DNA of 40,003 nt from an uncultured Clostridia bacterium (GCA_949878595.1 CATLBG010000002.1:1-40003), one strand, 5' to 3'; shown: positions 105 to 26,656, numbered from the stretch's first letter. Made by a program: numbers and translations. The notes: a model not told the origin generated them from the letters alone.

Positions 105-3100
105 ATGAATTTCAAATTCTTTAGTTCGCTAATAAGTGCGACAGGTCAAACAATTGATCCTTCATACATTAGAGATACTTTTATGAATTGGGGTGCTGGC
201 TTAGCTGCTTTAGGAAGTACTCTATTTAATTTTATTTGTGGACTTTTTTATAATGTTGTCAAATGGCTTTTGGCATTCACTGATTTCCTTCAATATTTCA
301 TTCAAAAACTTATTGGTCTAGATTATTGGGTGAATAACAATGTTTATTCAATTGAAGGTGCAACCAGCAGTGATTTGTTGTTTTCATTTCTCTATAACGA
401 TACGATTCAAAAAGTTTTTAATACAATGCTTGCAGTTTTTGCAGTCTTATTAATTATTTTTACAGTATATGCAATCATAAAATCTGAATGGCAATATGTA
501 ACTGGCAAAAACTTTGGTGATGGAACCAACTCAAAAGCTCAAATCATTACAAATGCACTAAAAGCAATTGCAATGGTTCTTGTGTTTCCACTAACCCTTA
601 CCCTAGGAATTATTTCTTCAAATGCAATCCTAGCTTCAATATATAAGGCTTTAAACATAGACATGGCTTCAACATTTGGTGGAACACTGTTTTTGATTGG
701 TAGTAAAAATGCAAATAGATATAGGGTTTATGCAAAATCGGGGCAGCGTTCGGCGATAACTGACACAATTAAGTTTTATGTTAAAGATGGTTTAGTTATC
801 AGGTATGGTTCAACTGATTATAACGATGGTTATATCAATCAATATAGCGACTATGCTCAATATCTTAGAGCTCTTAGAGAGGGTAATGGTGCAACTCTCT
901 ATGAAGTTAACACAATGTTTGATATGATTGATATTGGCAGTGGAAGTTTTTCTGGATACTGCATTGGCATGGATATTGGCAATCAAAGACAATACTACAT
1001 GGTTAGATGTTCATCTGATAATAAAGTTGGAATGTATTATTATCTTAAAAACATTCTTCGTGTAGATATTATGGGTGATGGCGAAACTGGTGATGCTGGC
1101 AATAGAACAATCTATAACGAAATTGGAAGAGGAAACTTTAGCAGTTCAACTGGGGCAAAAGGCTTTATTGATGGCAAAAATTTCAGTGGTTCAAGTTGTG
1201 AAGAACTTTGGAATGCTTTCTGGAATACATGGGGTTATGCTTCAATTTATGATACAAAGCATGACTTTGAAACAAGTCTTGGCTATTCAGTTTTATCAAG
1301 AGCAAATGATGATAGTGCAATTTTAGGAGAAAATAAATCAATTCTTAGTTATATGGGGTTAGAGAGCTTTTCATCAGTAAAAATGCTCTATAACTCTTCA
1401 ATGATGTCTACATATTTTGATGGTGGACAATTTGGATTGGTTCAACTTGCAAATGAATATCATGTTATGGCTGATGTTGTTGACTTTATGAATAATAATG
1501 GCGTAACACTTTATATGCTTGATATGACATCAGATATGATTGACTGGAATTATGGTGAGTATACTGTTGATTCAAAATGGATTTCATATAACAATTCAAC
1601 TAAGAGCTTGAATATTATGCCTTCTGGAACAATTCCAAATGGTGATTCACAATATCCATTTACAAATACACCACTTGCAAATACAACTCCATTTATTGTT
1701 AGCTATTCAGATATGGTTAGTGATGTTGAGTCTGGAAATGTTTTATATACTGCAAAGGCTGGTGTGTCTAATGAACTTGAAGGTTCAAAATTTATTATGT
1801 GTTATAAGGTTGTTGAAAGAGATGGAACTTCAACAAAATATGTTCCACTTGTTAATCGCAAAGCATTTACTGATCCAGTAACAGGCAACAAATACACATT
1901 CTCATCTGATTATTATTCATCAGATTATAGAGGTGTGGTTATTGCAAAAGGTGTTTTTGCAAATAAAACATTGCTTGGTTCAAAAGTTGGAAATATTGAT
2001 GCAATGAATGGTTCTCCAACTTATATTAAAACAGGCTCAAAGATGCAAGATGGAACATCAATTGATGCTAGCAAACCATATTATTATTACATGGATGTTA
2101 GCGGAACAGTTATTCAGTATGCTGGATATCCATCAGCAAACTATCCATCAGACACATCTGCAAGTCTTGGTGGTTTAAGCTTTGGAGATGCTTCAGATTA
2201 TGTGATTAGAAATAATGGCTCAGGTGAGATTTTCCCAACATCAGGTTTCGATTTATCAACTGTGGCAGATGGCTCTAATGCTTTAAAAACCTCAAACTCA
2301 TTCAAAATTCAAAAGAAAGATGATTCTGGTGTTTATCAAGATGTTACAATAACTCCAGAACTACTTAAACAGTTAAATATTAATTTAAAATATTTCTTAT
2401 CAAATGCAGTAGTTGATGAAAATGCTGATCCTGATAGTTATAAAAAGTTGGCTAATGCAACTTTCTCGGGAACTGAATCAGGAAAGACTATTGAATTTAA
2501 ATTTTCTGCAGATGGTGGAACTAAATATTTCTATATTGGCTATTCAGATACAGAATTTTATTTGATGACATTTGACTCTGATAGTCAAACTTACATCAAG
2601 TATGAAGATGCAATTAACAATAATACTATTATTTCAAAATTTGAAACTTTAAATAAGTCTATAGTTAATGGTGAAAGCCCAGGTGATGTTACTTTAGGGC
2701 TTGGAGATAATACTCTAACTATCAGAGATGGAATTTCAGTTGATACTGCAATTTATCCAAATTATAGTGTTACTAATATGGCTGATTCTTCAGGAGAAGT
2801 ATTGCAAAATAGGTTCAAAATTACAGGAACAGATAGTATTACTCCTGATGTTATTCAAACATTGGTTATACCTCTTGAATACACAGTTAGTGCTGGTGGG
2901 TCAATATTCTGCTCAGCAACTTATGCTGGTCAATCAGTTACAGTTAATGATGGTAGTGGAGATAAAACATATTCACTTTTCACATTTGTTTATCAGGGAA
3001 CTAATTATTACCTTACTGTAGAAAGCACTTCAGATTCATTCTCTGTTTGCTCATATTCAACAACTGCTGATGGATTTGTCTCAAATGAGAATTCTAGAGA

Positions 3101-6100
3101 TATTGTTGCAAAATCTCGTAGATATAGACTCATGTATGACTATGTATCATTATCAAATAGTTCGGAATTTGGTAAAGAAATTGCAGTTTTGTCACCATCA
3201 GATTTCACATTCCAAGACAATGTTAGTGGAAATAGCAATTTGCAACTATTTATGACTTCTGAAAAACAGATAGTTATGGGTGGAAAGTATCAATATGTTA
3301 ATATATATTTTGATACAAAGGGAACAGGTAGACTTGTTACTGTTGATGGTAACAATAAAGTAACTTTTGCAGAACCAGTTGAAAAGAATGATGATAACAC
3401 TTCATATTTATATCATTCAGATGAATATACATTTAAGCTTTTCAATTACTATACTGGTGAAGTTGGAGAACCAATAACAGTTGAAACTGGGGCAACAATG
3501 ACTAGCCCAAGCTATGAAAACTTTACTGTAACAAGTTCTTCAATTAATACAAACTGTTGGTATTTAACAACTTTTTCATGGGATAATCTATTTAAAGATA
3601 ATCCAGGCAGATTTGGTGTAAACAGTGCACTTTTAAATCCACATACTCAGTTCTATTATGAATCAAATAAAAAGATATTTGATGAGAAGAATGATGGATT
3701 TACAATCAAACTTACATTGCAAAAAAATGGCACGACTTATAAAGTTACAGCAACAAATACAGGCATGAAAGATAGCACTGGACTTAACAAAATTTATTCA
3801 TTTAAACTTTCAGAAGATGGTCCAACTTATTATATGACTATGCGTGTCAATGCAGATGCTTCTGTTACAATTTTAGATAGTTATGGAAATACTATTGAGA
3901 ATAGTAATTTTGAGGCAACCTTTATGAAGGATCCAACTTACACACTTACTGTTGGTGGAACAACCATAAATAAAGAATTTCATTCTTATGAATTTGGCAA
4001 TTCATTCGTGCAAAATGGTTCAATTTACGTTGAAACTAATGATTTAGTTGATACTTCAACAAGTCTTGGAACAACTAAACTTTATATGAAGCTTACTGAT
4101 AAAAATAGTTTAATTTACTATGATGAAGTTATCAATGGAAATCCAACTATTAGAGCTGCTAGCATTGAAGAAAAAAGTGTAACAAAAGTTGGTCTTGGAC
4201 TTAAAGAATATAACCAGGATTCAGATTCTTTAGTTGCTGCTTCTGAGAGTTCAGAGGAGGGTTGGTCATTCTCTATTTGGGTAAGCCCAGAATTTTCATG
4301 GAATGCTCAAAGCAATTCATATGGTCTTTATAATGGTAGAAACTATGTTGCAACCATATATAAAAATCTTGGAACAGAGGTAAATTCACCATCAGAAATT
4401 GCATCAAAATCAATTCGTATTTTATATGATGGAAACACCTATTATAACATTTCAACTCAAAATAAATATAATGGCGACGCGGAAATGCTTTCTTATTACA
4501 ACAGAATCAAAGGTTCTTTTGTGACAAGTTTTCATAGAACAAGTTCAAATATAGAAAATTGGAAACTCAGTTTTGCGATTTTACCTCTAATTAATTTTAG
4601 AGTACATTTAAGCTTTGGACTTTATTCTATGAATAGAAACATTGAATTGGATAATAGTTTCAAACTTTCAGATGGTATTCAATTTGACTATTTCTTTGAA
4701 AATGCAGATGTTGAACTTGAAACATTCTATATTCAATCAAAAATAAGTTATTGGATATTGGTAATTGCTTCAGTGTTGATTATCAAAACTCTTATGACTG
4801 CACTTTGGGGAATTATCAAAAGATTCTATGAAATCACTCTATACTTCCTCGCTATGCCAGCAGTGGCATCTACAATTCCACTTGATGAAGGCAATAAGTT
4901 TAAAAGTGGAATACAGGAGCCTCTTATTAAGAAGGTTCTCAGCACCTATGGCGTAATTTTGGGCATAAATGTGTTCTTCATATTGCTTGCTCCAGTAAGA
5001 TCACTTTCACAGGTATTCACAGAACAAGATATTGCAGAATCAGGAACCTATTTCCTCAAATATCTTCCAATTAGTGCAAGCATGCTAAACGACTATGTAT
5101 ACATATTGTTTGTGCTTGTTGCTTTCACAATGATAGAAACTCTTCCAGGAGTTATCTCTGGATTAATTGGTGCAGATGATGTTTATGCTAAGGGTAAGGA
5201 AACAAAACAACAAGTTAGTCAGAATCTTTCAGATGCTGCAAATGCAGTGTCAGGAAAAACTTTAATTGATGGCACAAAGAATGTCGTTTCAAAGGCAACG
5301 AACTTTATTCCAGGCAAAAACCTAGTTTCTGGAGCATTTAACAAAGTTAACCAAGCAATTGATCATAAGATTGGTGAATGGGGTGAAGGTTTTGGTAGAG
5401 GCTATAGAGAAAAAATTAATTCTGATGGAAAAGATAAAAAATCAGAAGAGGGTGCACCAGCATCTGGTGGTGGTGGCTCAAGTAGAGCAGCTAATAACCT
5501 TGATGGTGCAACAGAGGCAGAAAATGGTCGCAGCTTCCAAGACTTTAATGAAAACACAGATTCATCTCTATATGATACACTAAAAGCACAATATTTAGCT
5601 GATGAGGGAACATCTGATGAAGAGTTTGCTCGTGCAATGTTCAGCACAAATAATTCTGCAAGTAGCAGTGCAATTGCAAATCTTATAAGAAATTCTCACG
5701 GTTCTAGTGGTGAAATGGGCAAACTTGTTTCTAGCATGCTTGGTGATAAATCAATTAATGACTTAGACGATTCTGCATTAGTTAACCTTGCAAAGGAATC
5801 AGGCAACTTTAACAAACTTTCTGATTTTGCAAATAACCATATCTCATTAACACTTGGTGAAGGAGTTTCAGGAACTCTTCAAGAAAAAATTATTAGTAAT
5901 GCAAAGAAAGACCCAGAACTTTTAGGCGAAGCAATAATGAATCTTTCAAATGGAAAATTCAGTTCAGCTGCAGATGCTTTTGCTCATAGAAATGACGCTG
6001 ATGTAAAGAAATTGATGGGTTCACAAGGATTTGCCGATGAAGTTCTATTGATGGCTCAAACTCGTGATTTGCAAGGCAAATTCAAACTTGGTGCTTGGGA

Positions 6101-6599
6101 TTTACTTTCTGGCAAAGATCAAAAGAGACTTATCAAAAAGCATGGTTCAAACAGAATGGGGTCAGCTCTTGGTAGATCAGAAGCTGAGAGAAATAGAGCA
6201 ATTGCAAAAGCTGTAAAGGAAGTAATAAAATCAGACACAAGCCTATCAAAAGAACTTAAAAACTCAGTAGTTAAACAAATTGAGAGTGATGGAATAAAGT
6301 TTGATAGTGCAACTAATGATCAAATTGTTTCAGTCTTAGTAAAAAATAGTAAACTTCTAGAAAAAATTAAGGAAATTTCAAAATATAATGCAGCTATGAA
6401 AGCTAGAAGTGAACTTGAAAGTTCAACTACAATTTCTAGAATAAATAATAGACTTAAGAAAGTTGAAACAGAAATGAAGAAAAACGATAAAACAGGAATT
6501 GCAAATAGCTTTATGAATGGTGGAAATAAACTAGAAAATGACCCACAGTTTATAGAGGCAATTACCAAAAAAGTACTAGAAAAAATCAACAAAAATTAA
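105..6599 (+). CDS. Giant polytopic membrane protein (2164 aa), paralogue A of a three-member family; function unknown, C-terminal multi-TM module possibly VirB6/TrbL-like
   Basis: An uninterrupted 6.5-kb ORF in AT-rich DNA (track 45..6599). I place the start at ATG 105 (MNFKFFSSLIS...). GGGGGA lies at 96-101, and this N-terminus aligns with that of the 23573 gene (MTNLISSLVNF). Position 45 is a TTG with no SD. There are three N-terminal hydrophobic segments, a long N/S/T/Y/D-rich middle region, four hydrophobic segments at about nt 4740-5180, then a K/E/S/G-rich tail of about 470 aa. Shared motifs: ANEYHVMADVVDF (from 1449) and GSKFIMCYK...YVPLVN...VIAKGVF (1782-1958). Confidence 0.93.
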   Translation: MNFKFFSSLISATGQTIDPSYIRDTFMNWGAGLAALGSTLFNFICGLFYNVVKWLLAFTDFLQYFIQKLIGLDYWVNNNVYSIEGATSSDLLFSFLYNDTIQKVFNTMLAVFAVLLIIFTVYAIIKSEWQYVTGKNFGDGTNSKAQIITNALKAIAMVLVFPLTLTLGIISSNAILASIYKALNIDMASTFGGTLFLIGSKNANRYRVYAKSGQRSAITDTIKFYVKDGLVIRYGSTDYNDGYINQYSDYAQYLRALREGNGATLYEVNTMFDMIDIGSGSFSGYCIGMDIGNQRQYYMVRCSSDNKVGMYYYLKNILRVDIMGDGETGDAGNRTIYNEIGRGNFSSSTGAKGFIDGKNFSGSSCEELWNAFWNTWGYASIYDTKHDFETSLGYSVLSRANDDSAILGENKSILSYMGLESFSSVKMLYNSSMMSTYFDGGQFGLVQLANEYHVMADVVDFMNNNGVTLYMLDMTSDMIDWNYGEYTVDSKWISYNNSTKSLNIMPSGTIPNGDSQYPFTNTPLANTTPFIVSYSDMVSDVESGNVLYTAKAGVSNELEGSKFIMCYKVVERDGTSTKYVPLVNRKAFTDPVTGNKYTFSSDYYSSDYRGVVIAKGVFANKTLLGSKVGNIDAMNGSPTYIKTGSKMQDGTSIDASKPYYYYMDVSGTVIQYAGYPSANYPSDTSASLGGLSFGDASDYVIRNNGSGEIFPTSGFDLSTVADGSNALKTSNSFKIQKKDDSGVYQDVTITPELLKQLNINLKYFLSNAVVDENADPDSYKKLANATFSGTESGKTIEFKFSADGGTKYFYIGYSDTEFYLMTFDSDSQTYIKYEDAINNNTIISKFETLNKSIVNGESPGDVTLGLGDNTLTIRDGISVDTAIYPNYSVTNMADSSGEVLQNRFKITGTDSITPDVIQTLVIPLEYTVSAGGSIFCSATYAGQSVTVNDGSGDKTYSLFTFVYQGTNYYLTVESTSDSFSVCSYSTTADGFVSNENSRDIVAKSRRYRLMYDYVSLSNSSEFGKEIAVLSPSDFTFQDNVSGNSNLQLFMTSEKQIVMGGKYQYVNIYFDTKGTGRLVTVDGNNKVTFAEPVEKNDDNTSYLYHSDEYTFKLFNYYTGEVGEPITVETGATMTSPSYENFTVTSSSINTNCWYLTTFSWDNLFKDNPGRFGVNSALLNPHTQFYYESNKKIFDEKNDGFTIKLTLQKNGTTYKVTATNTGMKDSTGLNKIYSFKLSEDGPTYYMTMRVNADASVTILDSYGNTIENSNFEATFMKDPTYTLTVGGTTINKEFHSYEFGNSFVQNGSIYVETNDLVDTSTSLGTTKLYMKLTDKNSLIYYDEVINGNPTIRAASIEEKSVTKVGLGLKEYNQDSDSLVAASESSEEGWSFSIWVSPEFSWNAQSNSYGLYNGRNYVATIYKNLGTEVNSPSEIASKSIRILYDGNTYYNISTQNKYNGDAEMLSYYNRIKGSFVTSFHRTSSNIENWKLSFAILPLINFRVHLSFGLYSMNRNIELDNSFKLSDGIQFDYFFENADVELETFYIQSKISYWILVIASVLIIKTLMTALWGIIKRFYEITLYFLAMPAVASTIPLDEGNKFKSGIQEPLIKKVLSTYGVILGINVFFILLAPVRSLSQVFTEQDIAESGTYFLKYLPISASMLNDYVYILFVLVAFTMIETLPGVISGLIGADDVYAKGKETKQQVSQNLSDAANAVSGKTLIDGTKNVVSKATNFIPGKNLVSGAFNKVNQAIDHKIGEWGEGFGRGYREKINSDGKDKKSEEGAPASGGGGSSRAANNLDGATEAENGRSFQDFNENTDSSLYDTLKAQYLADEGTSDEEFARAMFSTNNSASSSAIANLIRNSHGSSGEMGKLVSSMLGDKSINDLDDSALVNLAKESGNFNKLSDFANNHISLTLGEGVSGTLQEKIISNAKKDPELLGEAIMNLSNGKFSSAADAFAHRNDADVKKLMGSQGFADEVLLMAQTRDLQGKFKLGAWDLLSGKDQKRLIKKHGSNRMGSALGRSEAERNRAIAKAVKEVIKSDTSLSKELKNSVVKQIESDGIKFDSATNDQIVSVLVKNSKLLEKIKEISKYNAAMKARSELESSTTISRINNRLKKVETEMKKNDKTGIANSFMNGGNKLENDPQFIEAITKKVLEKINKN

Positions 6600-6619
6600 A
6601 CATTAGGAGAGCAGGATAA

Positions 6620-9600: not shown

Positions 9601-9742
9601 AGAGACAAGTGAAGAATATAAGGCTAAAAAGGCAGTTTATATTAGAATAATTAATGACTTATCAAGAGTTAAGAATGATACAAAAATGCTTGAAGATACT
9701 TTTGATAAACTTGGTATTGGAGAGTTAAAAAACAAACAATAA
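6620..9742 (+). CDS. Large soluble K/E-rich, probably coiled-coil protein (1040 aa), function unknown
   Basis: An uninterrupted 3.1-kb ORF with AGGAGA at 6605-6610. It has no hydrophobic segment long enough for a TM helix. It contains long heptad-like runs rich in K, E, L, I and N, with no Walker A and no HxH/HUH relaxase-like motif seen by eye. It begins 20 nt after the upstream gene. Confidence 0.9.
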   Translation: MNPKFQEEIKSYLNSLEEDPEKGLELLRRLQGEDPKAYNEAVDAIIELLPSDQIQALSRMGTEQGYLALSQAEQQKLFSVVGSEELAKELSYHEVMEVLNNKDLREISDELEERADKQDNVDYAYNFEKDLIDIEELRKSLMNGPEEDVQTFVERYFSGSGYENNKHNKELIAMRLWGRDNVVSDIIRGNEKETETAIKKFEKENKDVKFASLDLSAQNRILREAYEALSNDNKENADLAFANSLIVNKPAKEKTKLAQKILDEAKDLNKSVEELLFASKQLRSEIGLAECEFKNSNLDQKVIENLDEKIFENLHNQIIKDRFDETSKVIESAKKRIIESNIEKRIKDGKIEVTDIPDPSEMDFDEKRDFNYRVSLLNRHLRENPESDILKNILLNTHLVNEDVILKELISRQEDLKKNASKLSYDEIKQFLRVDVINSYFSENQSLKTTMLQVGGNNLLLTFNEKQLDAKFINTVNRNKNIRADVLKDAFISGKENNKILSEIKTVLSLDKETVIDDYNFDKLSKQAAEKVYIAENGKIKKEKEAEVLASVKKLYRENYLFRSVIYSEMTEVVSYMSESPDSVQAKFFGDYVPMKMPKSLSEAIKTGKNAVFSLDSRFSRAISASSSIIGDPKKQVADEDRAKQSQEIRRQIAIMTDKINNLSTKQNGREYSVQAKEILGENYNKIYNSKTLITQLVGGGVENESPAIQQRDILKGLQTLMLQAVKRIDSISLYIPAPYEFRNDPKFRDKLSLKSSSEIVSKNVDYGRFAVLTLVKKGTNAVAQTKMQQDFMNKDPEYKMIVEEFNRRYEKFSETEEKLEDLRQSLEKLQGKETGSSTARNMVRNIKTAISDQEKKLIILESYMLKAKETKESYEKKFAAKLDKTAKKQSIEVNSQVADIFTYQDVFLKGNNVPINPKTDTKLAMQIRKVVNQFISNMLASIDRVNETLRLRNVKQISLKNTRLGGVVKQSGIIIKTLTEERDKISDELKNLSETSEEYKAKKAVYIRIINDLSRVKNDTKMLEDTFDKLGIGELKNKQ

Positions 9743-9786
9743 AAAGTGCGAAAAAGTTACAAAATTATTAAAAAAACGCTATATAT

Positions 9787-9815
9787 TTGCTAGTTTATTG
9801 TAAAAGTTATATAAT
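9787..9815 (+). promoter_or_regulatory. Near-consensus sigma-70/SigA-type promoter inside the operon, upstream of the VirB4-like gene
   Basis: TTGCTA (9787-9792), a 17-nt spacer, then TATAAT (9810-9815). It lies in the only sizeable intergenic gap of the operon (9743-9835). AAGGAG sits at about 9822-9827 before ATG 9836. Confidence 0.5.
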
Positions 9816-9835
9816 TTAATTAAGGAGAAAATTAG

Positions 9836-12523: not shown

Positions 12524-12544
12524 AATCACTTAGGAGAGAAACCC

Positions 12545-18500: not shown

Positions 18501-21500
18501 AATATGCATATGATCACTCAAATAGCACAATTTTTGGCAACTGTGAATTTGAAGAATTAAAACAAGACTTCTTAATAAAAGTTTATGTTATTAAGGGTGC
18601 TGATGGTGATAGAAATTATTTAATGATAAATGGTCATTATTATAACATCACAGATGCACAAGATGGTGTAACTGGCAAGTTAACTAATGCAGTTAGCAAA
18701 TCAGATTTAATCAATGATGGCTATAGTTATTCATTTAAATTAGATGCAGGCGAATTGTATTATGACCTTAGCAGATCAAGAGAACAAATCTCAAGAGAAC
18801 TTGTAAAATCAAATGATAGTTTGGTTTATAATTTAACAGTAGATGACAAAACATATACTTACTTTAGAAAAATAGACAGTAACTTAGAGAGAGTTTATAG
18901 AGTTAGTTTAACAACTCTTGATACTTATAAAATTTCTGTTATGGTTCGTGATGTTAACTGGGTTCAAAAACTCATGAACGATATGCAAGTAATTTATCCA
19001 GATCTCAACTGGGCAAACTTAATTGCAACAAATGGCTGGTTTGACACACTTGGTGAATATCATTCTTCTTATGCATCAGGACAATTTGTTGCAAGTGGCA
19101 ACACTGCAAACATAACTGCAGCTGGTATGGTTCTTTCAGAATTCTTGCTATCTATCGCAAACACAAGTTATGCGGGTTTTGCAGAATATGAATATAGTTC
19201 TGTATTTGATGAAGATGTAATAAATGCTTTAATGTTAGCAATGCTTGGTGAACAAAAATATGAAACATTAAAAATTCAAGCAAAAGTTTTTGTTGAAATG
19301 TTTAATGTTGGCTTTGCTCAAATTCTAGATGACGTTGCTGCAGAAAGAGGGCTAAATATTGTTGATGGTGAAGTGAGCAACCTTACAATGAGCATATATA
19401 AATCATATTTAGCTTCAATCTTACTTTCATCTGATCTTGGTGAATATTTATACACAATTGCAACTAGAGTTTATTCTCAATATGCTATTTATGAAACTTT
19501 GGCATTTGCAAGTGGAGACTATGCAAATTATTATGCATACATAAATGGTTTTGCTGATGAAACAGGAAAAGTTGTTGATGCATTTAAATATGCAACCTTT
19601 AGAGAACTTGTTGAATTTGAAAATACAAGCTTAAAAGATGATGCAGTTCCAGTTTATACATTTAACTATTATGCTGTTTATAGAGCTATAATTAATAGCA
19701 ATGCAAGCAAAGCAGAAACAAACTTAAGTTTGCATTTTGGTGAGCTTGATGCTTTGGTTGAATGGGCAAAAACGATTGGAATAACAGAGCAGCAACTTAA
19801 GAATAGAGGTTACTACAAAACAGGTTATACTGAAAAAGATATCAGAAATCTTTTAACTGGTCTTGGACTAAATAATGTGTTTGTTCCAGTTTCATATGAT
19901 ACACTTATTTCAAAATTAAATGCAGAATATGAAACAAAATATACATCATATCGTGGTTCGACTGATAGATTTAATGATAATGATGAATCACATTTTAGCT
20001 ATATGCTTCATGTTTATTGGTCAATTCGTCAAGACTTAAAAAATCGTATGATTCTAACATCTCCAGTATATCTTAGAATTTATGAAGATTATATTTATGG
20101 TAACATTGATAGGTGGGAAATTGAATGTGACATGACCATAAATGCATCTTCAAGTTTAATTCAATACTATGACATATACAAATTATTATTACAGACAAAA
20201 AAATTCTCATATTTAGGTTCATATCTTCTTGCATATTTCCCAAATCTAGTATTTACACTTGAAACTGAAGAAGATTATGATCAATTTGTTGAAGATTTCA
20301 CAATAGGAAATTATTCAATTGATGCTAATTCGATGGTTTATAGGCTAAAAGAAATATTCCCATCGTCAACTACTTATGGAAAAATCTTAAACAAAGTTTT
20401 TGCATCAGACACACTAAGCCCTAGTGATATTATTTTGAAAACAAAATTAATGTTTGATTCAGAAGAGGGTAAAGTTAGTTCGTGGAACACAATTGTTCAA
20501 ACAAGAGATAATATAGAAGCTTTGCTTAGCGAACTTGCAGATGTTATGGATCTTGCTGTTGGTGAAAAAACACCAAATGGATCAATTCACGTAAATTTCA
20601 CACAAAATGTTTATAGTGAAACATATAATTCACTTTCAAGCATATATGAAAAGTTAAATGACTATATTGGAACTCAAAATACAATTGATAAGATTGAAAA
20701 AGCAAGCATAACATTCACTTTGGCACAGTTCAGCAACAACTATGTTGAAAGTGGATTTGAGTTTACTATTAGAAATAAGGTTTACACTTTAGATACAGCA
20801 ATTTCTGCTCAAAGACTTGCAGAATATGTTTATGGTGGAGCATATCTTGATCAGTTTGGAGTATATGCACAATATACTAGTCCAACTTTCACAGGAATTA
20901 TTCACCCAACAAAGGCAGTAGATACAGAAGATGGTAATAGAGTAAAAACTAAGTTAAACTGTTTCACAGAACTTAGAGAATTTGCAGGAAGCATTGCAGA
21001 CTACACTGCAAAATTATACTTCTTAACAAACTTAAAAGATCTTTCAGATAATGTTAGTGATTCAATGCTCTTAACTGAAGAGCTATATGCAACAAATGGC
21101 TATATTGGTGCATACTTTGGTAATTCTGGAGGCAGTTATAAAACTTCACTAGAATATCTAATCTTAGATCATATTGTTGCAGAGGAAGAAATTTATACAG
21201 ATACACTTTTAAGATTGATTTTTGGTGATACAGAAGATTCTTTAAATAGAATGAATTGCAGTGATATTTATATTACTCTTTTAGAAAAATTCTTAAGCGG
21301 AAGCACAAACTATAGTCCAGCAGAATCAGAATTTATTAATAACAATAAGAATAATGGTTTGATTAAAGTTGCCGAAAATGGTTCAATTGCTTCGCTTTCA
21401 GAAGAATTTATTAGACTTGGTCTTAGAAGATATCTTGTATATATTCAAACAACAGATAGTAATATAAAAACCATTAATACTGGTTCAGGTTACACCTATT

Positions 21501-23554
21501 TAACTGGAGGTGACATTGAAGGCTATTATGGTTTATATCAACCAAATGGTTATAACTCTCATGGTTATTATGGTGAGGGCTACACCGCTAGTGATAGAAT
21601 TCATATAGCTTTTAAGAATGTTATTTCTTACCTTACTATAAGTGAAGAGCAAAAAGAAGGTGATATTGACTTAGGTATTGAAGGAAAGACTGTAGATCTT
21701 GATGGCATGACATTCAAAGATTTAAAATCTTATTTAATTGATTCTTTGGTTGATTATCAGAAAAATGAAGGCGAGGGAGCAGAGAATGCTGCTAGATATT
21801 TGACACTTTTCAATCTAATTAGTGGTCAATTTAACTATATGATTAATGAAGATGGCAAGGGCTTAAAGAGTATTGGCACAACACTTTCTTCAGTTAATAA
21901 AGATAAGCAAGATGGTTCAAACCTTGTAAAATATAAAAATGAAATAATTTATCAGGGTAATGACTATGGAACAAAGTCAACTTTATATGCAAGCTTTAAT
22001 ATTGACAGGTCAACAAGAGGCACAATCTTGAAACTTTGCGGAATAGAAAACAGACCAATTGAAGAGCTTGTAAAATTAGAGTATGATGAGCTTTATCAGA
22101 GAAATGGTTCATATGATGAGGCTAAAGGCGATGTATTCATTCTATGCTCATATGATGATGAAACAGGAAAATATGTTCCATTCCTTGCGAGCAACAGTAA
22201 ATATTCTGGTTCTTTTGGTGGAACAAATTACATGGATTATATCAATGATTATGGCCACAGAATTTTCACAGATTATTATGATTCAGAATATGGCGTTAGA
22301 TTTGCATATCCAATCATTGCAAAAGGGATTGTAACTCCAGATTTAAAACCAACTGCAATTAAGATTGAAGACAATGTTGCTAAATTCTATAGAACAGACA
22401 TAACTGCTACTGCAAAGGTTGAAGAGAGTGCTCTTCAAAAAGTTAATGCTTCAGTAGAAACAACAACTGTTGGATATGTGCAATATGTAAATGTTTCTTC
22501 ATTTAACAACATTCAATCAAAAAATGAAGGTAACACTATGTTTATTGGTTCATCAGATATAATGAGCTACATAAACTCAGATGCAAGTGTATACTATGTT
22601 CAATATACAAACGTCTATAATATTTCAAAAGCTGATGGCTTTGACGGAATTTCAGTATTAGATTCATTCTCGGCATTCTTCAATATGTCAATTCAAATGC
22701 ATTTATTAATGGTTCTTGCGTTCATAACATTAGTTCCATTATTATTCAATGCATCTGGTGCAGTTTTAAGAAGAATTTTAGATTTGATTTTATTGGTTCT
22801 TGCTGGACCATTATGCATTTCAATGAATTCATTAAAGCATACAGATGAAGAACAACAGGCATATAGCCAGTGGAAGAAATATATGTTCAGCACACTTCTT
22901 AGTGTGTTTGGATTAATAATTTCATTTAATCTATACTTTATCATGATTTCAATAGTAATGAACATGAATTTTGTTAGTGCTGGTGACTCAACCATGGAGA
23001 GAATTAGCATGATTGGTGGACTAAACTTTGTTACAGCACCAATCCTCAATGCTGCAATAAGAATCATATTTGTGGTTGTTGCAACCAACATAATAGAAAA
23101 TGCAGCAGATATGCTTCTAAATATGCTCACTGGTGGAAAGGCAAACAGCTCATTTAAATCAGCTCTTGGTGGCGAAACAATAATTAAGTCTCTTGGAAGC
23201 TTAAAGGATTCAATGGTTAAAGATATAAGAACTGTAACCTCAGGTGCAAGAGATGTTATTAATGGAAAAATTTTAATTGAAGCAAAGAATGCAGTTGTAG
23301 AATCCCTTCCTGGTGTTCAAGTTGTTAGAGGTGCCGTTGAAGGTGTTGGAAATGTAAATAACTATCTAAAATCTAGAGAACTTTATAAAAAAGCAAGAGC
23401 GAAGGGAATAAATCCATTAGTTGCAAGAGCTGCAGCAAAAGAATATAGAAATAACTACAAAAAACAAAGAGATGAAATAAATAAAAGAAGACAGCAATAT
23501 GCTCAAAGTTTCTATGGCAGAATGGGTCTAAACTATGGTGGAGGCAAAAAATAA
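12545..23554 (+). CDS. Giant polytopic membrane protein (3669 aa), paralogue B; repeat-rich ectodomain, function unknown
   Basis: An uninterrupted 11-kb ORF with AGGAGAG 7 nt before ATG 12545. It has an N-terminal 3-TM module like the 105 and 23573 genes. Shared motifs: AEQYQVMADFIDY (from 13415) and GDVFILCSYDDETGKYVPFL...YPIIAKGIV (22127-22333). A C-terminal hydrophobic cluster lies at about 22697-23145, followed by a basic tail of about 135 aa. Confidence 0.93.
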   Translation: MLNMLKSLMCLIAAEPCSAVSHGQSFLAAMSPSLGWIVIKNVFLWLWNWILSLIWIIEKFVLGIMDALQAIVYEFLGIGTTVDDYLNFATKNDATKILVDTFKAILAVAIVLMIIFTIVAIIRQEIETATNAKGKGNEETNKKGPIVMKLFKGIMSAILLPFAMIAIIGAVNSVLTAFNNALQGENQTTIAGQVLATSTYDVNKYRQYANNNKRVPVLIEAYNVDDYGADQKEELVYKIKSVSVQEKLINTATDINKNLLLSFNESLTYENNKLTNNSKYADYYESFVCTAEQYQVMADFIDYCELTNTNFYIKAIDDNDIEWKYVDSSVFDAANMSLNITYRDANDLDGDGKTNDTYTVSFSMGFDVTSPISNALDSISALLGLNQYGDMKYNEMERDPNSINMVQWANEKVSLHFSYGFKINDMSTWTPADEILMYEYYHFSSNNSLADYSFSDLSYENRGNATLDAYKIVYRDYYPDAGAFSSEKVIYVVYINGSYYKIKKSETEVDSYGNKFYVLDANEDAKFLEKGYTILSEEPEKAELKFVGKQGNFSLNNPSTWSYTDQILIYEYYKDLSYNNTFSNYNISDLGKGIQVSTYKIRDYDAAGNETENRYVLLNGTYYLVSAPSSGSNYVLTGSTSSSNFLESIEDKYLTTYYNYVGSNGNAIKIEDIRGEFGISTNTTTNKTANDFIIDSDDGVIFTNLERNINYVLSEEIEFNLKYTPGFDYRDVDTWSYKDYFLFYLYAKYLNNSSLTVDSLKYTPLPGIVGKFNGKTYYKIQSQLTENNSKYKTVYLCVDDINNISTQNIKNVINEQTTLENNRFSTNDDLAFTLITDPYTVFSKVETEIRDFTFSSNVSFENVNEWKMRDYILFLLDSRGIIGLPANFENYQYNSVVYKGVSIGANLTSNLYSFGSGDKTIYLNENYLVNLGYNDFDEFLDTKLITFIAKRLSNSSNGEIKKLLLEREDLISNIANSDAYNSNTHVFASLVNALINIYGFGAESADKILDIYNDLSTYTYTNSNFIADDLSTYTIFDLAIYLFTGRATGRYNNYIANVNGEMKYIIGDYAVSISNSSIFSSTISQESYVTSGAVNLGGQSLTEYYKDSGLSSKVLMVSKGENSLSHANNLDYIFVSDAVNGNYTNLDVIIAGLNLTQKVSYELYTNGVSNYLLLGEKDNTLYYLTVDNFNMDNIASLSTNSTISLNSNINPFVVSGTYNSFSGSTGSNNYNLMDSVIFELTNNTSPASYRIYTSSLLGGKSYISIDGTFVEYNSSIVNFDRLASGYNDYEDLVDILINNYYNSYVVGNIGSTTGNTNISYNVSDFDLEDINTYTPLRLILNKIGVTSDVSGYLTRSANRLYFVIRLTDINGKVTTYNINVTDFLDADGNDIQSEIVKLRYRAALCYQTSGAFKSPSEVIDDLENLNQNIENAISSYVVSSYTSNPLNFTKEMTEEDISSWNWLDIAHYYVFGTFRTTNDFVLYSDVEVNGNERYLYVGLNSGGTTRFVRFASSILSADGTVKLEDFDSGNRRVSFSLDSDSSLLGLLYYKYTGSESGSVNYAKIGSGEDARRIYSILDQNTGSYVFYIGYEDQSKESSINSVVSANSYTYNLSATTENLYTWNLLDLLIKAADGNLSNKAYNMSSRIYTIDGNRYMLVNGYYINIDLVGATLSEKLQDGSTTEYIRTIEKTRIPSAESFFGYSSNTINDVNSSSAFNYGFIRLRASNVSKKTNPLVTDSTTGNIIASNEVKLYFSEGFDFSDYSSWKNSDFMLYYLFKTGHMDSSVQTFQYYVNLGYVPATMYALESYDNYGSVTINKVYKVGEGECNFGSFANLNASSIEAYRNSVSSDVFNSFIRNIADYNFINYNIWQLQYERQLTNIFTQSNSDADLFVSIDGKPVTNPGIGTFGISITTDINARDFIYNNYYYFNVNTEDEELVNLRVSTSISDSLNDSTETKIINLKLSEGFDINDISTWTILDYIIVREYAYDHSNSTIFGNCEFEELKQDFLIKVYVIKGADGDRNYLMINGHYYNITDAQDGVTGKLTNAVSKSDLINDGYSYSFKLDAGELYYDLSRSREQISRELVKSNDSLVYNLTVDDKTYTYFRKIDSNLERVYRVSLTTLDTYKISVMVRDVNWVQKLMNDMQVIYPDLNWANLIATNGWFDTLGEYHSSYASGQFVASGNTANITAAGMVLSEFLLSIANTSYAGFAEYEYSSVFDEDVINALMLAMLGEQKYETLKIQAKVFVEMFNVGFAQILDDVAAERGLNIVDGEVSNLTMSIYKSYLASILLSSDLGEYLYTIATRVYSQYAIYETLAFASGDYANYYAYINGFADETGKVVDAFKYATFRELVEFENTSLKDDAVPVYTFNYYAVYRAIINSNASKAETNLSLHFGELDALVEWAKTIGITEQQLKNRGYYKTGYTEKDIRNLLTGLGLNNVFVPVSYDTLISKLNAEYETKYTSYRGSTDRFNDNDESHFSYMLHVYWSIRQDLKNRMILTSPVYLRIYEDYIYGNIDRWEIECDMTINASSSLIQYYDIYKLLLQTKKFSYLGSYLLAYFPNLVFTLETEEDYDQFVEDFTIGNYSIDANSMVYRLKEIFPSSTTYGKILNKVFASDTLSPSDIILKTKLMFDSEEGKVSSWNTIVQTRDNIEALLSELADVMDLAVGEKTPNGSIHVNFTQNVYSETYNSLSSIYEKLNDYIGTQNTIDKIEKASITFTLAQFSNNYVESGFEFTIRNKVYTLDTAISAQRLAEYVYGGAYLDQFGVYAQYTSPTFTGIIHPTKAVDTEDGNRVKTKLNCFTELREFAGSIADYTAKLYFLTNLKDLSDNVSDSMLLTEELYATNGYIGAYFGNSGGSYKTSLEYLILDHIVAEEEIYTDTLLRLIFGDTEDSLNRMNCSDIYITLLEKFLSGSTNYSPAESEFINNNKNNGLIKVAENGSIASLSEEFIRLGLRRYLVYIQTTDSNIKTINTGSGYTYLTGGDIEGYYGLYQPNGYNSHGYYGEGYTASDRIHIAFKNVISYLTISEEQKEGDIDLGIEGKTVDLDGMTFKDLKSYLIDSLVDYQKNEGEGAENAARYLTLFNLISGQFNYMINEDGKGLKSIGTTLSSVNKDKQDGSNLVKYKNEIIYQGNDYGTKSTLYASFNIDRSTRGTILKLCGIENRPIEELVKLEYDELYQRNGSYDEAKGDVFILCSYDDETGKYVPFLASNSKYSGSFGGTNYMDYINDYGHRIFTDYYDSEYGVRFAYPIIAKGIVTPDLKPTAIKIEDNVAKFYRTDITATAKVEESALQKVNASVETTTVGYVQYVNVSSFNNIQSKNEGNTMFIGSSDIMSYINSDASVYYVQYTNVYNISKADGFDGISVLDSFSAFFNMSIQMHLLMVLAFITLVPLLFNASGAVLRRILDLILLVLAGPLCISMNSLKHTDEEQQAYSQWKKYMFSTLLSVFGLIISFNLYFIMISIVMNMNFVSAGDSTMERISMIGGLNFVTAPILNAAIRIIFVVVATNIIENAADMLLNMLTGGKANSSFKSALGGETIIKSLGSLKDSMVKDIRTVTSGARDVINGKILIEAKNAVVESLPGVQVVRGAVEGVGNVNNYLKSRELYKKARAKGINPLVARAAAKEYRNNYKKQRDEINKRRQQYAQSFYGRMGLNYGGGKK
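13780..18660 (+). repeat. Protein-level array of at least 8-9 degenerate modules of about 60-90 aa inside the 3669-aa gene
   Basis: Module starts seen at about 13783, 14170, 14690, 15090, 15595, 16880, 17375, 17795 and 18420. Recurrent pattern: hydrophobic-x-hydrophobic-x-F-S-x-G-F-D-x-x-D-x-S-T-W-x-x-x-D-x-I-L-x-Y-E-Y-Y ... N-G-x-Y-Y-x-I. Examples: LKLSEGFDINDISTWTILDYIIVREY...MINGHYYNI, and LYFSEGFDFSDYSSWKNSDFMLYYLF. The repeats are divergent at DNA level. Confidence 0.7.
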
Positions 23555-23572
23555 TACAAAAGGAGAAAACAG

Positions 23573-26500
23573 ATGATTGCAGGTAACATGACAAACTTAA
23601 TAAGTAGCTTAGTGAATTTTGATTCATCTGTTTTCTCACGCTTTGTTTGTGCAAATAATATTTTTTCTGCAGTTCAAAAAGTCATGAATTTCTTGTATGG
23701 ACTATTCTATACAATTGCAAAATATCTATTATATTTAGTAGATTTAATTTTCTCATACATTCAAAAACTTGCTGGATTAGATATGGCTATGGATTCACTT
23801 GAAAGCATGATATCTCCAGATAGTGATATTGTCTTTAATTTGCTTATTTCAGGCAGTGACTTAGTCACGGCAATAATTAGAAACTTAATAGTTTTGGCTA
23901 TTGTAATGATTATAGTTTTTGCAATTATTGCAATAATCAAAGGGCAATATGATGCAATGAAAAAGAATTCGCAGGCTAGCCCTTTTGAAACTTTAAAAAC
24001 AATGTTAAAAGCATTTTTGCTATTATTAGTTACACCTCTTTTTACGATAGGAGGAATAATTGTTTCAGATTTGTTGCTACAAACATTATATAGAGCAACT
24101 AATGTAAGCGGGGCAATGTCGCTTGGCACGCAAGTGTTTGTGTCGGCGTCATCTTCTGCAAATGCATATAGACTTTATGCACAAAATGGAGGACGAATCC
24201 CAATAACTTTTGATGGAACAAAAAGCTCAGAGATAAATGCATATTTTAATGATCATTCAGTTTCAGATGGTTTTGTTAAGTATCTCCAAGATAGCAAAAA
24301 TTCGGGAAATGAAACTAACCCAATTTATGCTACCTACATGACATTTTTGTCATCAGATTTCACTCCTTATATCTCAATGAATGATATTTTAAGTAGTAGT
24401 GATGAGGTCAAAAATACAAAAGAACTATATGATACTTATTATGATTACTATATTCCAAGTGATGGAGAGTCGTTAATTTATCCAGATTTAATGAAAATTC
24501 AATCATATGCAGAACAGTATTATGTTATGGCAGATGTTATTGATTTCTGTGTTAAATCTGGTTCAGAGCTATACATGAGAACAATTGAGCAAGTGCTTAG
24601 AAGCGTTTGTAACTTAAAGGACGACTTCGCAGATAAAGAAAAGATTTTCAGCACACTTGTGAATCAATATGAAATTAAATTTTTCAATGGCTATGACACA
24701 GAAACTAGTCAGCCAATAAATGAAGTTTTAATTAGAACCACAAACGATTATTTAATGAATATTCGCAGAGGTTCACTAATTAGTTTTAATAGCAACTACT
24801 ATGCACCTGATGATTCGGGTGATCCAACAGTTAGAATGCAAATTAGAGTGATTCATGTGGTTGGTGAGACTGATGAACTCAGGGGTGCAAAATTTATTAT
24901 GACCTCAAAAAATGAGGTTCAGACAGCAGATGGCATTTCTCAAAGATATTTTATGCCTCTTGTCAATGGTTATGTTGGAAACTATGGCACAGAATTTAGG
25001 TCAGACTATATTAGAGATGGAAGTATTGTTGTTGCAAAAGGTGTATTCAGCAATTCAAAATATCCAACTGCAATAAAAGTAATTTCTGGTGATATAGATA
25101 AACCGATAATAGCTTTTTATAGGGAAGATATAGATGCTCAAGCAACTGGTCAGCTTGGTGATTATTTCTCGCTCAAGGTTGATGCTCCAAAGGGTGGTTT
25201 CCTAGGAAAACTTATAAAGATGATAAAAGCACTCTTTGACCCATCAGAGCTTATTCCAGAAATCAATGTCAATTTTGATGCACTGCAAATAACCTACGAT
25301 AAATCTAATGGTCCAACTGAAGTTGATACACTCATAGACGGCAGAATACGGCTGGGTTATTTCATGAAATTTAATCCAACTTATCCAACGACAGATCTTG
25401 TCACAAATTTTTGTCTATCATATACTGAGCTATATAGTGCTCCAAAAATGAATTATCTTTTATTGGTGGTTGGCTCATTTTTGCTTGTTAAGGTATGTTT
25501 AAGTGCTATAACATCATTAATTGAAAGAGCTTATGAGCTCTTCCTAATATTCATAACCTATCCTGCGGCTTGTGCTACTATTCCAATTGATAATGGTGGG
25601 GCATATGGCACATGGCTCAAAGGCTATTTTGAGAGAATATTTAGAGCGTATGGATTTATTTTAGGTATAAATTTTGTGCTTATGTTATTCCCAATAATTC
25701 AAAACATAGCGTTTTTCTCGCAAGATGATATAGGAACTTCAAAAATAGTTAGAAGAGTTGGTGTATTATTCTTCAATGTTATGACAGTTCGTCAAATAAC
25801 AGAGTCTCTAAACTTCTTTATTGCAATAATATGTGAGCTCATTGCATTCACACTCATTGAAACAATTCCAGAAACTGTTTCAACTATTATTGGTGGAAAA
25901 GATGCAGCTCTTAACATTAAAGACAACAATGTATTCAAAAAACTCACTGAAAAAGCTGGAAAAGTGACAAGTACAGTTGGAAAAGTTGTTGTTCCTCCAC
26001 TTAAAACACTAGAATATGTTGGATTAAGCATGTCAAGAAGTCAAAAAGCAAAACAGAAAAAGAAACAAATGAGAGATCAACTTAGAAGTAAAGTTATGAC
26101 TAGTGTTGGACTTGATGTATTTAGTTCTCCTTTAACTGAAAAATATAAAGATGAAAATGGCGTGGAAAGAAGGAGATTTACTCAACAAGCCAAAAGTCAA
26201 TGGGGTCTTGGTAGTAAAATTAAGGAAGAAGCAAAGCGTAAGCATGATTTTAAGAAAGCTAAAGCTGAGCAAGATGAAGCTAATGAAAATCTATTTAAAG
26301 TACTCAATGACCCTCTTTCAACAAAAGCTCAAGTTACTGATGCTCTTGCTCACTATGAAGCTATGGCAACAAAGACATCATCAACTACTAGAAATAAGGG
26401 ACTTAAATGTAATCAATGTCATCGTTCATTTACTATTGATAAACTAATGGCAGAAGATAACAAGCGTAAAACAATTATTGAAAAGGATTCAGAAGGTAAA

Positions 26501-26656
26501 GAGGTTAAAAAGAATAATCCAAATTACTTTAAAGATACTCTTAAACAAAGAGGAGGATGGCTTTGTCCAGACTGCTTCATGCCAGGTATGGATCCTGGAA
26601 GTGCTCCAAAACTTGAACCTGTTGATAAAAAAGACAAAGGTTCAGAAAGTAAATAG
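23573..26656 (+). CDS. Large polytopic membrane protein (1027 aa), paralogue C, the minimal version of the family, with a C-terminal CxxC...CxxC zinc-ribbon-like tail
   Basis: The ORF has AAGGAG 8 nt before ATG 23573. It has an N-terminal 3-TM module. Shared motifs: AEQYYVMADVIDF (from 24509) and GAKFIMTSK...YFMPLVNG...IVVAKGVF (24884-25048). A hydrophobic cluster lies at about 25448-25900. The K/R-rich tail carries CNQC (26408-26419) and CPDC (26564-26575). Confidence 0.92.
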   Translation: MIAGNMTNLISSLVNFDSSVFSRFVCANNIFSAVQKVMNFLYGLFYTIAKYLLYLVDLIFSYIQKLAGLDMAMDSLESMISPDSDIVFNLLISGSDLVTAIIRNLIVLAIVMIIVFAIIAIIKGQYDAMKKNSQASPFETLKTMLKAFLLLLVTPLFTIGGIIVSDLLLQTLYRATNVSGAMSLGTQVFVSASSSANAYRLYAQNGGRIPITFDGTKSSEINAYFNDHSVSDGFVKYLQDSKNSGNETNPIYATYMTFLSSDFTPYISMNDILSSSDEVKNTKELYDTYYDYYIPSDGESLIYPDLMKIQSYAEQYYVMADVIDFCVKSGSELYMRTIEQVLRSVCNLKDDFADKEKIFSTLVNQYEIKFFNGYDTETSQPINEVLIRTTNDYLMNIRRGSLISFNSNYYAPDDSGDPTVRMQIRVIHVVGETDELRGAKFIMTSKNEVQTADGISQRYFMPLVNGYVGNYGTEFRSDYIRDGSIVVAKGVFSNSKYPTAIKVISGDIDKPIIAFYREDIDAQATGQLGDYFSLKVDAPKGGFLGKLIKMIKALFDPSELIPEINVNFDALQITYDKSNGPTEVDTLIDGRIRLGYFMKFNPTYPTTDLVTNFCLSYTELYSAPKMNYLLLVVGSFLLVKVCLSAITSLIERAYELFLIFITYPAACATIPIDNGGAYGTWLKGYFERIFRAYGFILGINFVLMLFPIIQNIAFFSQDDIGTSKIVRRVGVLFFNVMTVRQITESLNFFIAIICELIAFTLIETIPETVSTIIGGKDAALNIKDNNVFKKLTEKAGKVTSTVGKVVVPPLKTLEYVGLSMSRSQKAKQKKKQMRDQLRSKVMTSVGLDVFSSPLTEKYKDENGVERRRFTQQAKSQWGLGSKIKEEAKRKHDFKKAKAEQDEANENLFKVLNDPLSTKAQVTDALAHYEAMATKTSSTTRNKGLKCNQCHRSFTIDKLMAEDNKRKTIIEKDSEGKEVKKNNPNYFKDTLKQRGGWLCPDCFMPGMDPGSAPKLEPVDKKDKGSESK

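Follow-up and report, generated by a model that had tools for sequence, protein, structure and literature searches.

The closest described relatives of the system reported here come from Mollicutes. Mbov_0397 of the Mollicute integrative and conjugative elements (ICEs) is TraE (PMC3365025), a VirB4 homologue numbered CDS17 (PMC12857230), and Mbov_0396, being adjacent to it, corresponds to CDS16. Transposon insertion in CDS15, CDS16, CDS17 or CDS19 abolishes transfer of ICEA in Mycoplasma agalactiae (PMC6030558), and a 2025 review terms CDS16 'likely the VirB6-like component' (PMC12857230). According to the same review, nearly all known Gram-positive type IV secretion systems (T4SSs) move DNA only, VirB2-like pilins are not found in Gram-positive T4SSs except those of Patescibacteria, and the extra domains of 'extended' VirB6 proteins, a subfamily for which it cites Alvarez-Martinez and Christie 2009 and Bao et al. 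2009 (four Ehrlichia chaffeensis paralogs), are without known role. Here we describe a 40,003-nt stretch of a metagenome-assembled genome of uncultured gut Clostridia, called the window below, in which five packed genes on the plus strand (g1 to g5) encode a VirB4-type ATPase and three giant proteins, g1, g4 and g5, at present annotated as "hypothetical". Judging by homology and architecture, the three are almost certainly old paralogs. Profile comparison identifies their common scaffold as homologous over both halves to the Mbov_0396/MMCAP2_0566 family, and the cluster is an unusual, unannotated variant of a T4SS.

The genes and their parts lie as follows; the gene reading extended to about 10 kb on each side of the cluster.

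105-6599, plus strand: g1, 2,164 aa; paralog 1, before VirB4
~192-770, plus strand: g1 N-module (BLASTP, profile, motifs)
~1437-1970, plus strand: g1 shared middle domain with motifs b and c (BLASTP, profile)
~1971-4664, plus strand: g1 lineage-variable insert, not conserved in relatives
~4665-5417, plus strand: g1 C-module (NCBIfam, BLASTP)
5418-6596, plus strand: g1 predicted cytoplasmic tail
6620-9742, plus strand: g2, 1,040 aa, no family match
9836-12523, plus strand: g3, VirB4-type ATPase of the Mollicute ICE type (Mbov_0397/TraE/CDS17 family)
12545-23554, plus strand: g4, 3,669 aa; paralog 2
~12611-13567, plus strand: g4 N-module and motif b
~13799-18889 (aa 419-2115), plus strand: g4 repeat array, about 10 divergent repeats of 120-150 aa
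~18890-22102 (aa ~2100-3180), plus strand: g4-specific conserved region, mostly helical
~22103-23551, plus strand: g4 motif c, C-module and basic tail
23573-26656, plus strand: g5, 1,027 aa; paralog 3, the shortest
23645-24217 (aa 25-215), plus strand: g5 N-module
24218-25417 (aa 216-615), plus strand: g5 folded domain of 400 aa with motifs b and c, predicted to face outward
25418-25942 (aa 616-790), plus strand: g5 C-module
25943-26653, plus strand: g5 basic tail carrying CNQC...CPDC

The scaffold common to g1, g4 and g5 was apparent from pairwise BLASTP with composition correction, which aligned N-terminal, middle and C-terminal modules in collinear order. The N-modules matched at E-values of 9e-21 (g1/g5), 7e-16 (g1/g4) and 7e-8 (g4/g5), and the C-modules at 8e-24 (g1/g5) and 6e-9 (g1/g4). 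The middle domain was found at 4e-7 in g1/g5 and at 0.008 in g1/g4, and was joined with the C-module in g4/g5 (1.5e-11). In the negative control, the best match of g1, g4 or g5 to g2 or g3 had an E-value of 0.18. A hidden Markov model (HMM) trained on g5 orthologues of other species only (Z = 1e6) matched g1 as three pieces (6e-43, 1.5e-12 and 6e-41) and g4 as two (3e-31 and 2e-31). An earlier reading of this DNA, made from the sequence alone and called the sequence-only reading below, had already proposed one scaffold for the three proteins, with extra residues between motifs (c) and (d) in g1 and between (b) and (c) in g4. The breaks in the BLASTP and HMM alignments bear it out on all three points and measure about 900 aa in g1 and about 2,850 aa in g4. 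The motif strings that it quoted were found at, or a few bases from, the positions it gave:

Motif (a), loop: g1 FIQKLIGLD, 297-323; g4 VYEFLGIG, 12758-12781; g5 YIQKLAGLD, 23756-23782
Motif (a), end: g1 ANRYRVYA, 711-734; g4 VNKYRQYA, 13148-13171; g5 ANAYRLYA, 24158-24181
Motif (b): g1 NEYHVMADVVDF, 1452-1487; copies in g4 and g5 seen in the translations
Motif (c), G-x-KFIM / YVP / IAKG: g1 1782-1955; g4 22127-22330; g5 24884-25045
Motif (d): g1 4818-4886; g4 22769-22828; g5 25523-25591

The strings of motif (d) were all present, although they had been listed in the order g5, g1, g4 and not by coordinate. A basic tail, claimed for each protein, was confirmed in g4 (pI 10.3) and g5 (pI 9.7) but not in g1, where the whole tail has a pI of 7.9, is near neutral overall and is basic in its last 150 aa only.

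The family to which the scaffold belongs was revealed by two NCBIfam models, NF045848 ('MMCAP2_0566 family conjugal transfer protein', 322 positions, cut-off 90 bits) and NF045889 ('Mbov_0396 family ICE element transmembrane protein', 306 positions, cut-off 70 bits), both of which were matched by g1, g4 and g5 with E-values from 1e-9 to 6e-25. Against NF045848 and NF045889, respectively, g5 scored 88.1 (E 6e-25) and 54.8 bits, g1 scored 70.5 (E 1.5e-19) and 37 (E 2.5e-9, C-module), and g4 scored 55.1 and 55.3. The N-module aligned with model positions 2-162 and the C-module with about 165-315; because the two modules cover successive halves of the model, the scaffold consists of the two halves of one protein of about 300 aa. 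For hhalign, N and C modules were cut from 215 relatives and concatenated, and the resulting core profile was compared with single PGAP-annotated Mollicute proteins. It matched a Spiroplasma Mbov_0396-family protein at 95.6% (E 1e-8, 250 columns) and a Mesomycoplasma hyopneumoniae member at 89.9% (E 2e-6), while reversed and shuffled controls of both targets gave at most 1.1%. The Spiroplasma alignment, the one inspected, crosses the junction of the N and C modules without a break. The relationship was visible only with the NCBIfam models and the 215-member hhalign profile; BLASTP and the g5-family HMM were too weak when run against two Mollicute Mbov_0396 proteins (best E 0.003). A P-x(5-7)-D-x-G-x(3,4)-W stretch past helix 4 is common to the Clostridia core and the Mollicute family. 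The sequence-only reading thus recognised the scaffold itself but missed its identity with Mbov_0396/CDS16. Mbov_0399/CDS19, considered as an identity for g4 and g5 on account of their position after VirB4, was rejected (no NCBIfam match; hhalign 0.2%).

As read from these alignments, the site of insertion is the loop between hydrophobic helices 3 and 4. In the Spiroplasma member the halves are joined by a loop of about 35 residues; the distance from N-module to C-module is about 400 aa in g5, 1,300 aa in g1 and 3,150 aa in g4, and ranges from 276 to 3,153 aa (median 407) across the 215 relatives. The shortest paralog, g5, had been taken for the bare scaffold, which it is not, for it carries a folded domain of 400 aa with motifs b and c where Mollicutes have about 35 residues. 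In g1, the stretch of about 900 aa past motif c is not alignable in distant orthologues, and the insert, which is probably strand-rich, is absent or replaced even in relatives that are 44-50% identical in the flanking modules. In g4, about 2,850 residues separate the two parts of the b/c domain. Its repeats share a helix resembling S-T-W-x-x-x-D-x-I-L-x-Y-E-Y-Y, followed by strand-rich sequence, and are so divergent that BLAST self-comparison misses them. A repeat HMM trained on g4 detected one to six copies in the g4 orthologues of nine other species (E 1e-7 to 1e-38) and none in g1 or g5.

Not all of the inserted material evolves alike. When g4 was compared with six orthologues, identity amounted to 28-35% in the repeat array, 38-47% in the g4-specific region, 36-47% in motif c plus the C-module, and 22-30% in the tail. 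Part of the inserted 'payload' is thus variable and part constrained like the core, because the g4-specific region keeps core-level identity while the g1 insert and the repeats vary. The sequence-only reading had envisaged variable payloads on a conserved core and suggested homologous loci as the place to look. There, the g1 insert and the g4 repeat array varied as envisaged, but g4 residues 2101-3180 were conserved like the membrane core. As for the tails, that of g5 closes with CNQC...(48 aa)...CPDC (26408-26575, aa 946-1001), a Cys4 zinc-ribbon-like motif that is touched by one Pfam treble-clef model (E 1.2) and is a possible binding site for a protein partner or for nucleic acid.

Hydropathy and the AlphaFold model of g5 indicated three long hydrophobic helices per module, six in all. 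Applied over 215 family members, the positive-inside rule predicted that the loop between helices 1 and 2 (net charge -2.7) lies outside, the loop between helices 2 and 3 (net +2.7) inside, the inter-module region (K+R 8.4%, D+E 14.2%) outside, and the segment past helix 4 (net +1.8) and the tail (K+R 19%) inside. In g1, g4 and g5 the pI of the ectodomain is 4.5-4.65. Our best reading is therefore a protein of six helices that keeps both its termini in the cytoplasm and its insert outside; it is put forward as a hypothesis because many hydrophobic helices of VirB6 in the R388 structure do not lie in the membrane (PMC12857230). The surface exposure of the inserts that had been suggested earlier agrees with these charge statistics, by which the inserts are most likely outside. 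Structure predictions were built on shallow alignments of 22 (g5) and 17 (g4 region) sequences. The g5 model has a mean pLDDT of 65, with 80-94 in the b/c domain, and the model of g4 residues 1966-3165 likewise has a mean of 65, with many helical blocks at 70-90. Foldseek found no PDB match with E<0.6 for this g4 region, and the g5-family profile matched no PDB sequence at E<=0.1, giving only unrelated matches at E 0.3-0.9. No enzyme, VirB8-like or adhesin fold could be assigned from the g5 and g4-region models by Foldseek against the PDB.

The cluster reads, in order, VirD4-like coupling protein, two VirB2-like pilins, g1, g2, VirB4, g4 and g5. The VirB4 protein, g3, passes the Mollicute VirB4 equivalog model NF045975 (600 bits against a cut-off of 590) and matches Pfam P-loop_TraG (4e-20), and both its Walker A (GKSGCGKS at aa 523) and Walker B (IVVIDE at aa 759) motifs are intact. 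Its closest plasmid VirB4 relatives are from Spiroplasma and Bacillus plasmids. An N-terminal hydrophobic hairpin of g3 (aa 16-73), included in the Mollicute VirB4 model, may represent a VirB3-like segment that has become fused to VirB4; a separate VirB3 gene was not seen, and such a fusion would account for this. The remaining components lie upstream of the window, in the coordinates of locus L005:

L005 8912-9725, directly upstream of the window start: two tandem VirB2-like pilin genes, 99 and 132 aa
L005 4530-8740, minus strand, divergent: VirD4-like coupling protein and a 744-aa protein

Both pilins have two hydrophobic helices flanking a Lys-rich loop and match PF18895/NF045849; the 132-aa pilin passes the cut-offs of PF18895 and NF045849 (42.2 bits against a cut-off of 40). 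With a pilin gene upstream and VirB4 downstream, the scaffold gene stands in a neighbourhood of the Mbov_0395/Mbov_0397 type. The coupling protein passes the cut-off of the CD1115 family (258 against 250 bits), the NCBIfam family to which PcfC of pCF10 also belongs. The 744-aa protein carries a signal peptide and is anchored in the membrane at its C-terminus, with an ectodomain that is probably strand-rich; it matches no family and may be a surface adhesin of the system. No mutual similarity was found among it, the g1 insert and the g4 insert.

Reading frames are intact throughout g1 to g5, and a Shine-Dalgarno-like sequence precedes each gene. The open reading frame (ORF) of g1 begins with TTG at 45 and gene callers start it at the ATG at 105, behind a GGGGG Shine-Dalgarno-like run, which is most likely the start. 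The g2 protein, between g1 and VirB4, is hydrophilic and K/E-rich (pI 5.9) with no predicted membrane segment; it is absent from most related loci, with a weak homologue in L036 only (E 1e-13), and is an accessory gene of this sub-lineage. Further upstream of the cluster lie murI, rpsT, an M28 peptidase gene, holA and comEC, and downstream of g5 lie lspA, rluD, tig, clpP, clpX, engB, mraZ, rsmH, ftsL and the gene of a PASTA-bearing penicillin-binding protein. Across the window, all 2-kb bins have a GC content of 29-34%, and the value does not shift at the edge of the cluster. No integrase, transposase (DDE type included), repeat boundary or ICE backbone gene was found in the window or in 10 kb upstream. 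Scans of the giant proteins with Pfam, PHROGs and PADLOC gave nothing usable. A defence-system reading was rejected, as HerA-like models match the VirB4 P-loop alone.

Related loci were sought in one genome per species. The 34 loci found (about 30 species) belong without exception to uncultured gut Clostridia, with humans, mice, rabbits, deer and sheep as hosts, and show the order g1-like, VirB4, g4-like, g5-like wherever their flanks were covered. With few exceptions, each protein is closest to the window paralog at the same position; the g4-like proteins measure 1,720-3,700 aa and the g5-like proteins 790-1,580 aa. Eight loci share the lspA-rluD-tig-clpPX synteny downstream, with g5 orthologues 30-42% identical and ClpX about 80%. 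In other sub-clades the cluster adjoins gapA or a class II aldolase gene. Because the downstream context is shared by these eight loci despite the low identity of g5, vertical inheritance of a fixed chromosomal system fits better than a roaming element, although this comparison of gene contexts is not proof. An exhaustive profile search brought up 2,175 representative proteins with E<=1e-3, of which 637 reached E<=1e-30; they divide among the same three architectures. C-terminal extensions in the family span 2 to 5,468 aa; the longest relative (P0147) has 7,309 aa, about 5,450 of them past the C-module. A tblastn search with g5 against 72,556 plasmids gave no match.

Some individual loci deserve mention. 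In L026, a polysaccharide deacetylase gene and a gene for an N-terminally extended single-stranded DNA-binding protein (SSB) lie between the coupling protein and pilin genes (7415-8851), hinting at wall remodelling and at handling of single-stranded DNA, respectively. In L020, clpP is split in two ORFs (17621-18217), probably through an assembly or sequencing frameshift unrelated to the giant genes. In Mesomycoplasma hyopneumoniae NCTC10127 (L041), a mini-cluster of Mbov_0395, Mbov_0396 (750 aa), Mbov_0397 and Mbov_0399 (6131-14999) has dprA on one side and rpsT on the other; its flanks are housekeeping genes, and no further ICE genes come into view. The adjacency to rpsT, common to this mini-cluster and the Clostridia cluster (L005, L026), could be a coincidence or the trace of an old chromosomal location.

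On the whole, we consider it likely that g1, g4 and g5 are VirB6-like, non-redundant channel subunits of a chromosomal T4SS; to the functional part of this reading, their action in such a channel, we give somewhat less than an even chance. From the paralogy, family assignment, insertion site, gene neighbourhood and cross-species conservation observed here, we infer the topology, assembly, ectodomain role and substrate (DNA or protein) along the following lines. A folded domain would have entered the outward loop between helices 3 and 4 of a Mollicute-type bundle. In g4, this domain would further have gained, between motifs b and c, the repeat array and about 1,000 aa of conserved helical sequence, and in g1 the variable region of about 900 aa past motif c. 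Together with VirB4 and VirD4, the conserved helices would make up the translocon in the membrane, in which the three paralogs may be mixed in one oligomer. With lengths of 400 to 3,150 aa, the acidic ectodomains would reach through the cell wall and beyond, and would stand in for the VirB8-like proteins, hydrolases and adhesins that span the wall or contact the target in other Gram-positive systems, and the basic cytoplasmic tails would provide a docking place for ATPases or substrate. As to the substrate, the coupling protein and the SSB of one related locus make us lean towards DNA, and the missing relaxase leans away from classical conjugation. A wider proposal, possible but doubtful, is that an entire clade of low-GC, uncultured gut Clostridia possesses a fixed, vertically inherited T4SS of common stock with the minimal Mollicute system, equipped with pilins and with three giant VirB6-like subunits, in which the ectodomains of these subunits replace the wall-spanning and adhesin parts and which serves a lifestyle function and not self-transfer. 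Candidates for such a function are contact-dependent exchange, mycoplasma-type exchange of chromosomal DNA, and effector delivery.

Several observations weigh against the assignment as VirB6-like channel subunits. The curated NCBIfam cut-offs were reached by none of g1, g4 and g5, the best score being 88.1 against 90. No TrbL/VirB6 family of Pfam was matched by the three at E<=0.1, and one of the 22 g5 orthologues touched TrbL_4 (E 0.0086), which is a hint at most. When compared with PrgH and TcpH by hhalign, the core profile gave at most 1.2%, against single-sequence targets and hence with low sensitivity; the search for TcpH homologues gave only sequences at least 93% identical, too uniform for a diverse profile. 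The membrane part of the g5 model is of moderate confidence (pLDDT 60-75), and Foldseek matched the model to no PDB entry with E below 1. TrwI/VirB6 chains and DotA came up only at E 2.5-6, the R388 TrwI chains 7o3v_F and 8rtd_H at E 5-6 with target-normalised TM-scores of 0.29-0.36. As the comparisons with VirB6/TrbL sequences, with structures and with PrgH and TcpH gave no significant match, the term 'VirB6-like' rests on position, topology and the literature's own inference. In the window and the upstream flank of about 10 kb, neither a relaxase nor a VirB8-like protein nor a wall hydrolase was detected when the cluster proteins were scanned with Pfam, NCBIfam and PHROGs. In a crude, poorly resolved neighbour-joining tree of concatenated cores, the positional classes g4 and g5 were not cleanly monophyletic, so that the triplication is judged old from best-hit patterns and class-specific inserts. 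Finally, the source organisms are uncultured.

Other explanations of the giant proteins were weighed against these data. Membrane segments of an AT-rich genome have a biased composition, from which chance likeness of low-complexity hydrophobic segments might have produced the shared motifs; the BLASTP E-values, the g5-orthologue HMM and the hhalign comparison with its controls refute this, and we give it virtually no weight. The giants might instead be adhesins, envelope proteins or polymorphic-toxin-like proteins that reuse a common anchor independently of the ATPases, as the bulk of each is a large acidic, probably extracellular region with repeats, where no known T4SS fold was found. However, the anchor is homologous to a protein needed for mycoplasma conjugation (PMC6030558), the genes keep one order with respect to the pilins and VirB4 in about 30 species, and no toxin, sortase-signal or defence domain was detected in the cluster proteins with Pfam, NCBIfam, PHROGs or PADLOC, all of which makes such a role quite improbable.

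An ordinary active ICE that lies at this site by chance, of which the cluster would be the transfer module and the giants the mating-pore and adhesin components, has more in its favour: it was from Mollicute ICEs that the families of the scaffold, the pilin and VirB4 were defined, the plasmid VirB4 proteins closest to g3 come from Spiroplasma and Bacillus, the cluster includes a VirD4-like coupling protein, and one related cluster contains an SSB gene. We nevertheless regard it as unlikely, since relaxase, integrase, transposase and repeat boundary were all missing from the window and 10 kb upstream, both ends abut housekeeping genes as they do in other sub-clades, the cluster does not differ from its flanks in GC content, and eight species retain the same downstream context though their g5 orthologues have diverged to 30-42% identity. 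Nor do the genes look like the decaying, non-functional remnant of an ancient conjugative element, for which the unseen VirB8-like protein, hydrolase and relaxase of canonical Gram-positive systems might speak. The ORFs of 2,164, 3,669 and 1,027 codons are intact, tightly packed and equipped with ribosome-binding sites; full-length orthologues exist in about 30 species; the core and the g4-specific region remain 36-47% identical while the tails drift to 22-30%; and the VirB4 Walker motifs are preserved. We consider decay the least credible of the three biological alternatives, and very improbable.

Compared with the Mollicute Mbov_0396 family, the Clostridia locus has the same helical core over both halves and the same order of pilin, scaffold and VirB4 genes, as seen in M. 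hyopneumoniae and on a Spiroplasma plasmid. The Mollicute family models, of about 306-322 positions, have contiguous halves, whereas 276-3,153 aa separate the halves in the Clostridia relatives, and Mollicute loci have one scaffold gene where the Clostridia locus has three paralogs. The Mollicute hosts are wall-less and the system is ICE-borne; the Clostridia host is walled and the system chromosomal, with no ICE backbone genes nearby (window plus 10 kb upstream). The locus forms a bridge between the minimal conjugation machinery of Mollicutes and a chromosomal system of walled Clostridia, and bears on the origin of the Mollicute system. It also offers a natural series on one homologous core, with about 35 (Mollicute), 400, 1,300 and 3,150 residues at the same, precisely defined insertion site, and about 2,000 metagenome relatives of up to 7,309 aa are available for its study.

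The extended VirB6 proteins, such as those of Ehrlichia, are, by description (PMC12857230), likewise several polytopic paralogs beside VirB4, with at least five hydrophobic helices and huge hydrophilic domains in a central or C-terminal position. The Clostridia proteins differ from them in that the host is monoderm, the insertions appear nested inside a folded, outward-facing domain, their lengths go up to 3,669 aa in the window and, across the wider family, to 7,309 aa, and no sequence similarity or significant structural similarity to VirB6/TrbL was detected. The VirB6-like proteins of Gram-positive conjugation systems, PrgH of pCF10 (about 270 aa) and TcpH of pCW3 (832 aa), are likewise polytopic and encoded beside VirB3/VirB4-like genes, but their systems have a hydrolase and VirB8-like proteins and reside on plasmids with relaxases, none of which was seen in the Clostridia cluster. 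The chromosomal T4SS of Patescibacteria (PMC12102498; PMC12857230) is likewise monoderm and relaxase-less, with PF18895 pilins beside VirB4, VirB6-like and VirD4-like genes; it has an array of six pilins where the Clostridia have two. The Clostridia system belongs to another phylum, its VirB4 matches the Mollicute equivalog, and its putative channel subunit is triplicated and giant. Full-text literature searches found no description of this Clostridia system, which bears on whether gut Clostridia use T4SSs beyond plasmid or ICE transfer. If it does serve as a fixed lifestyle T4SS, it would be the second Gram-positive case beside that of Patescibacteria.

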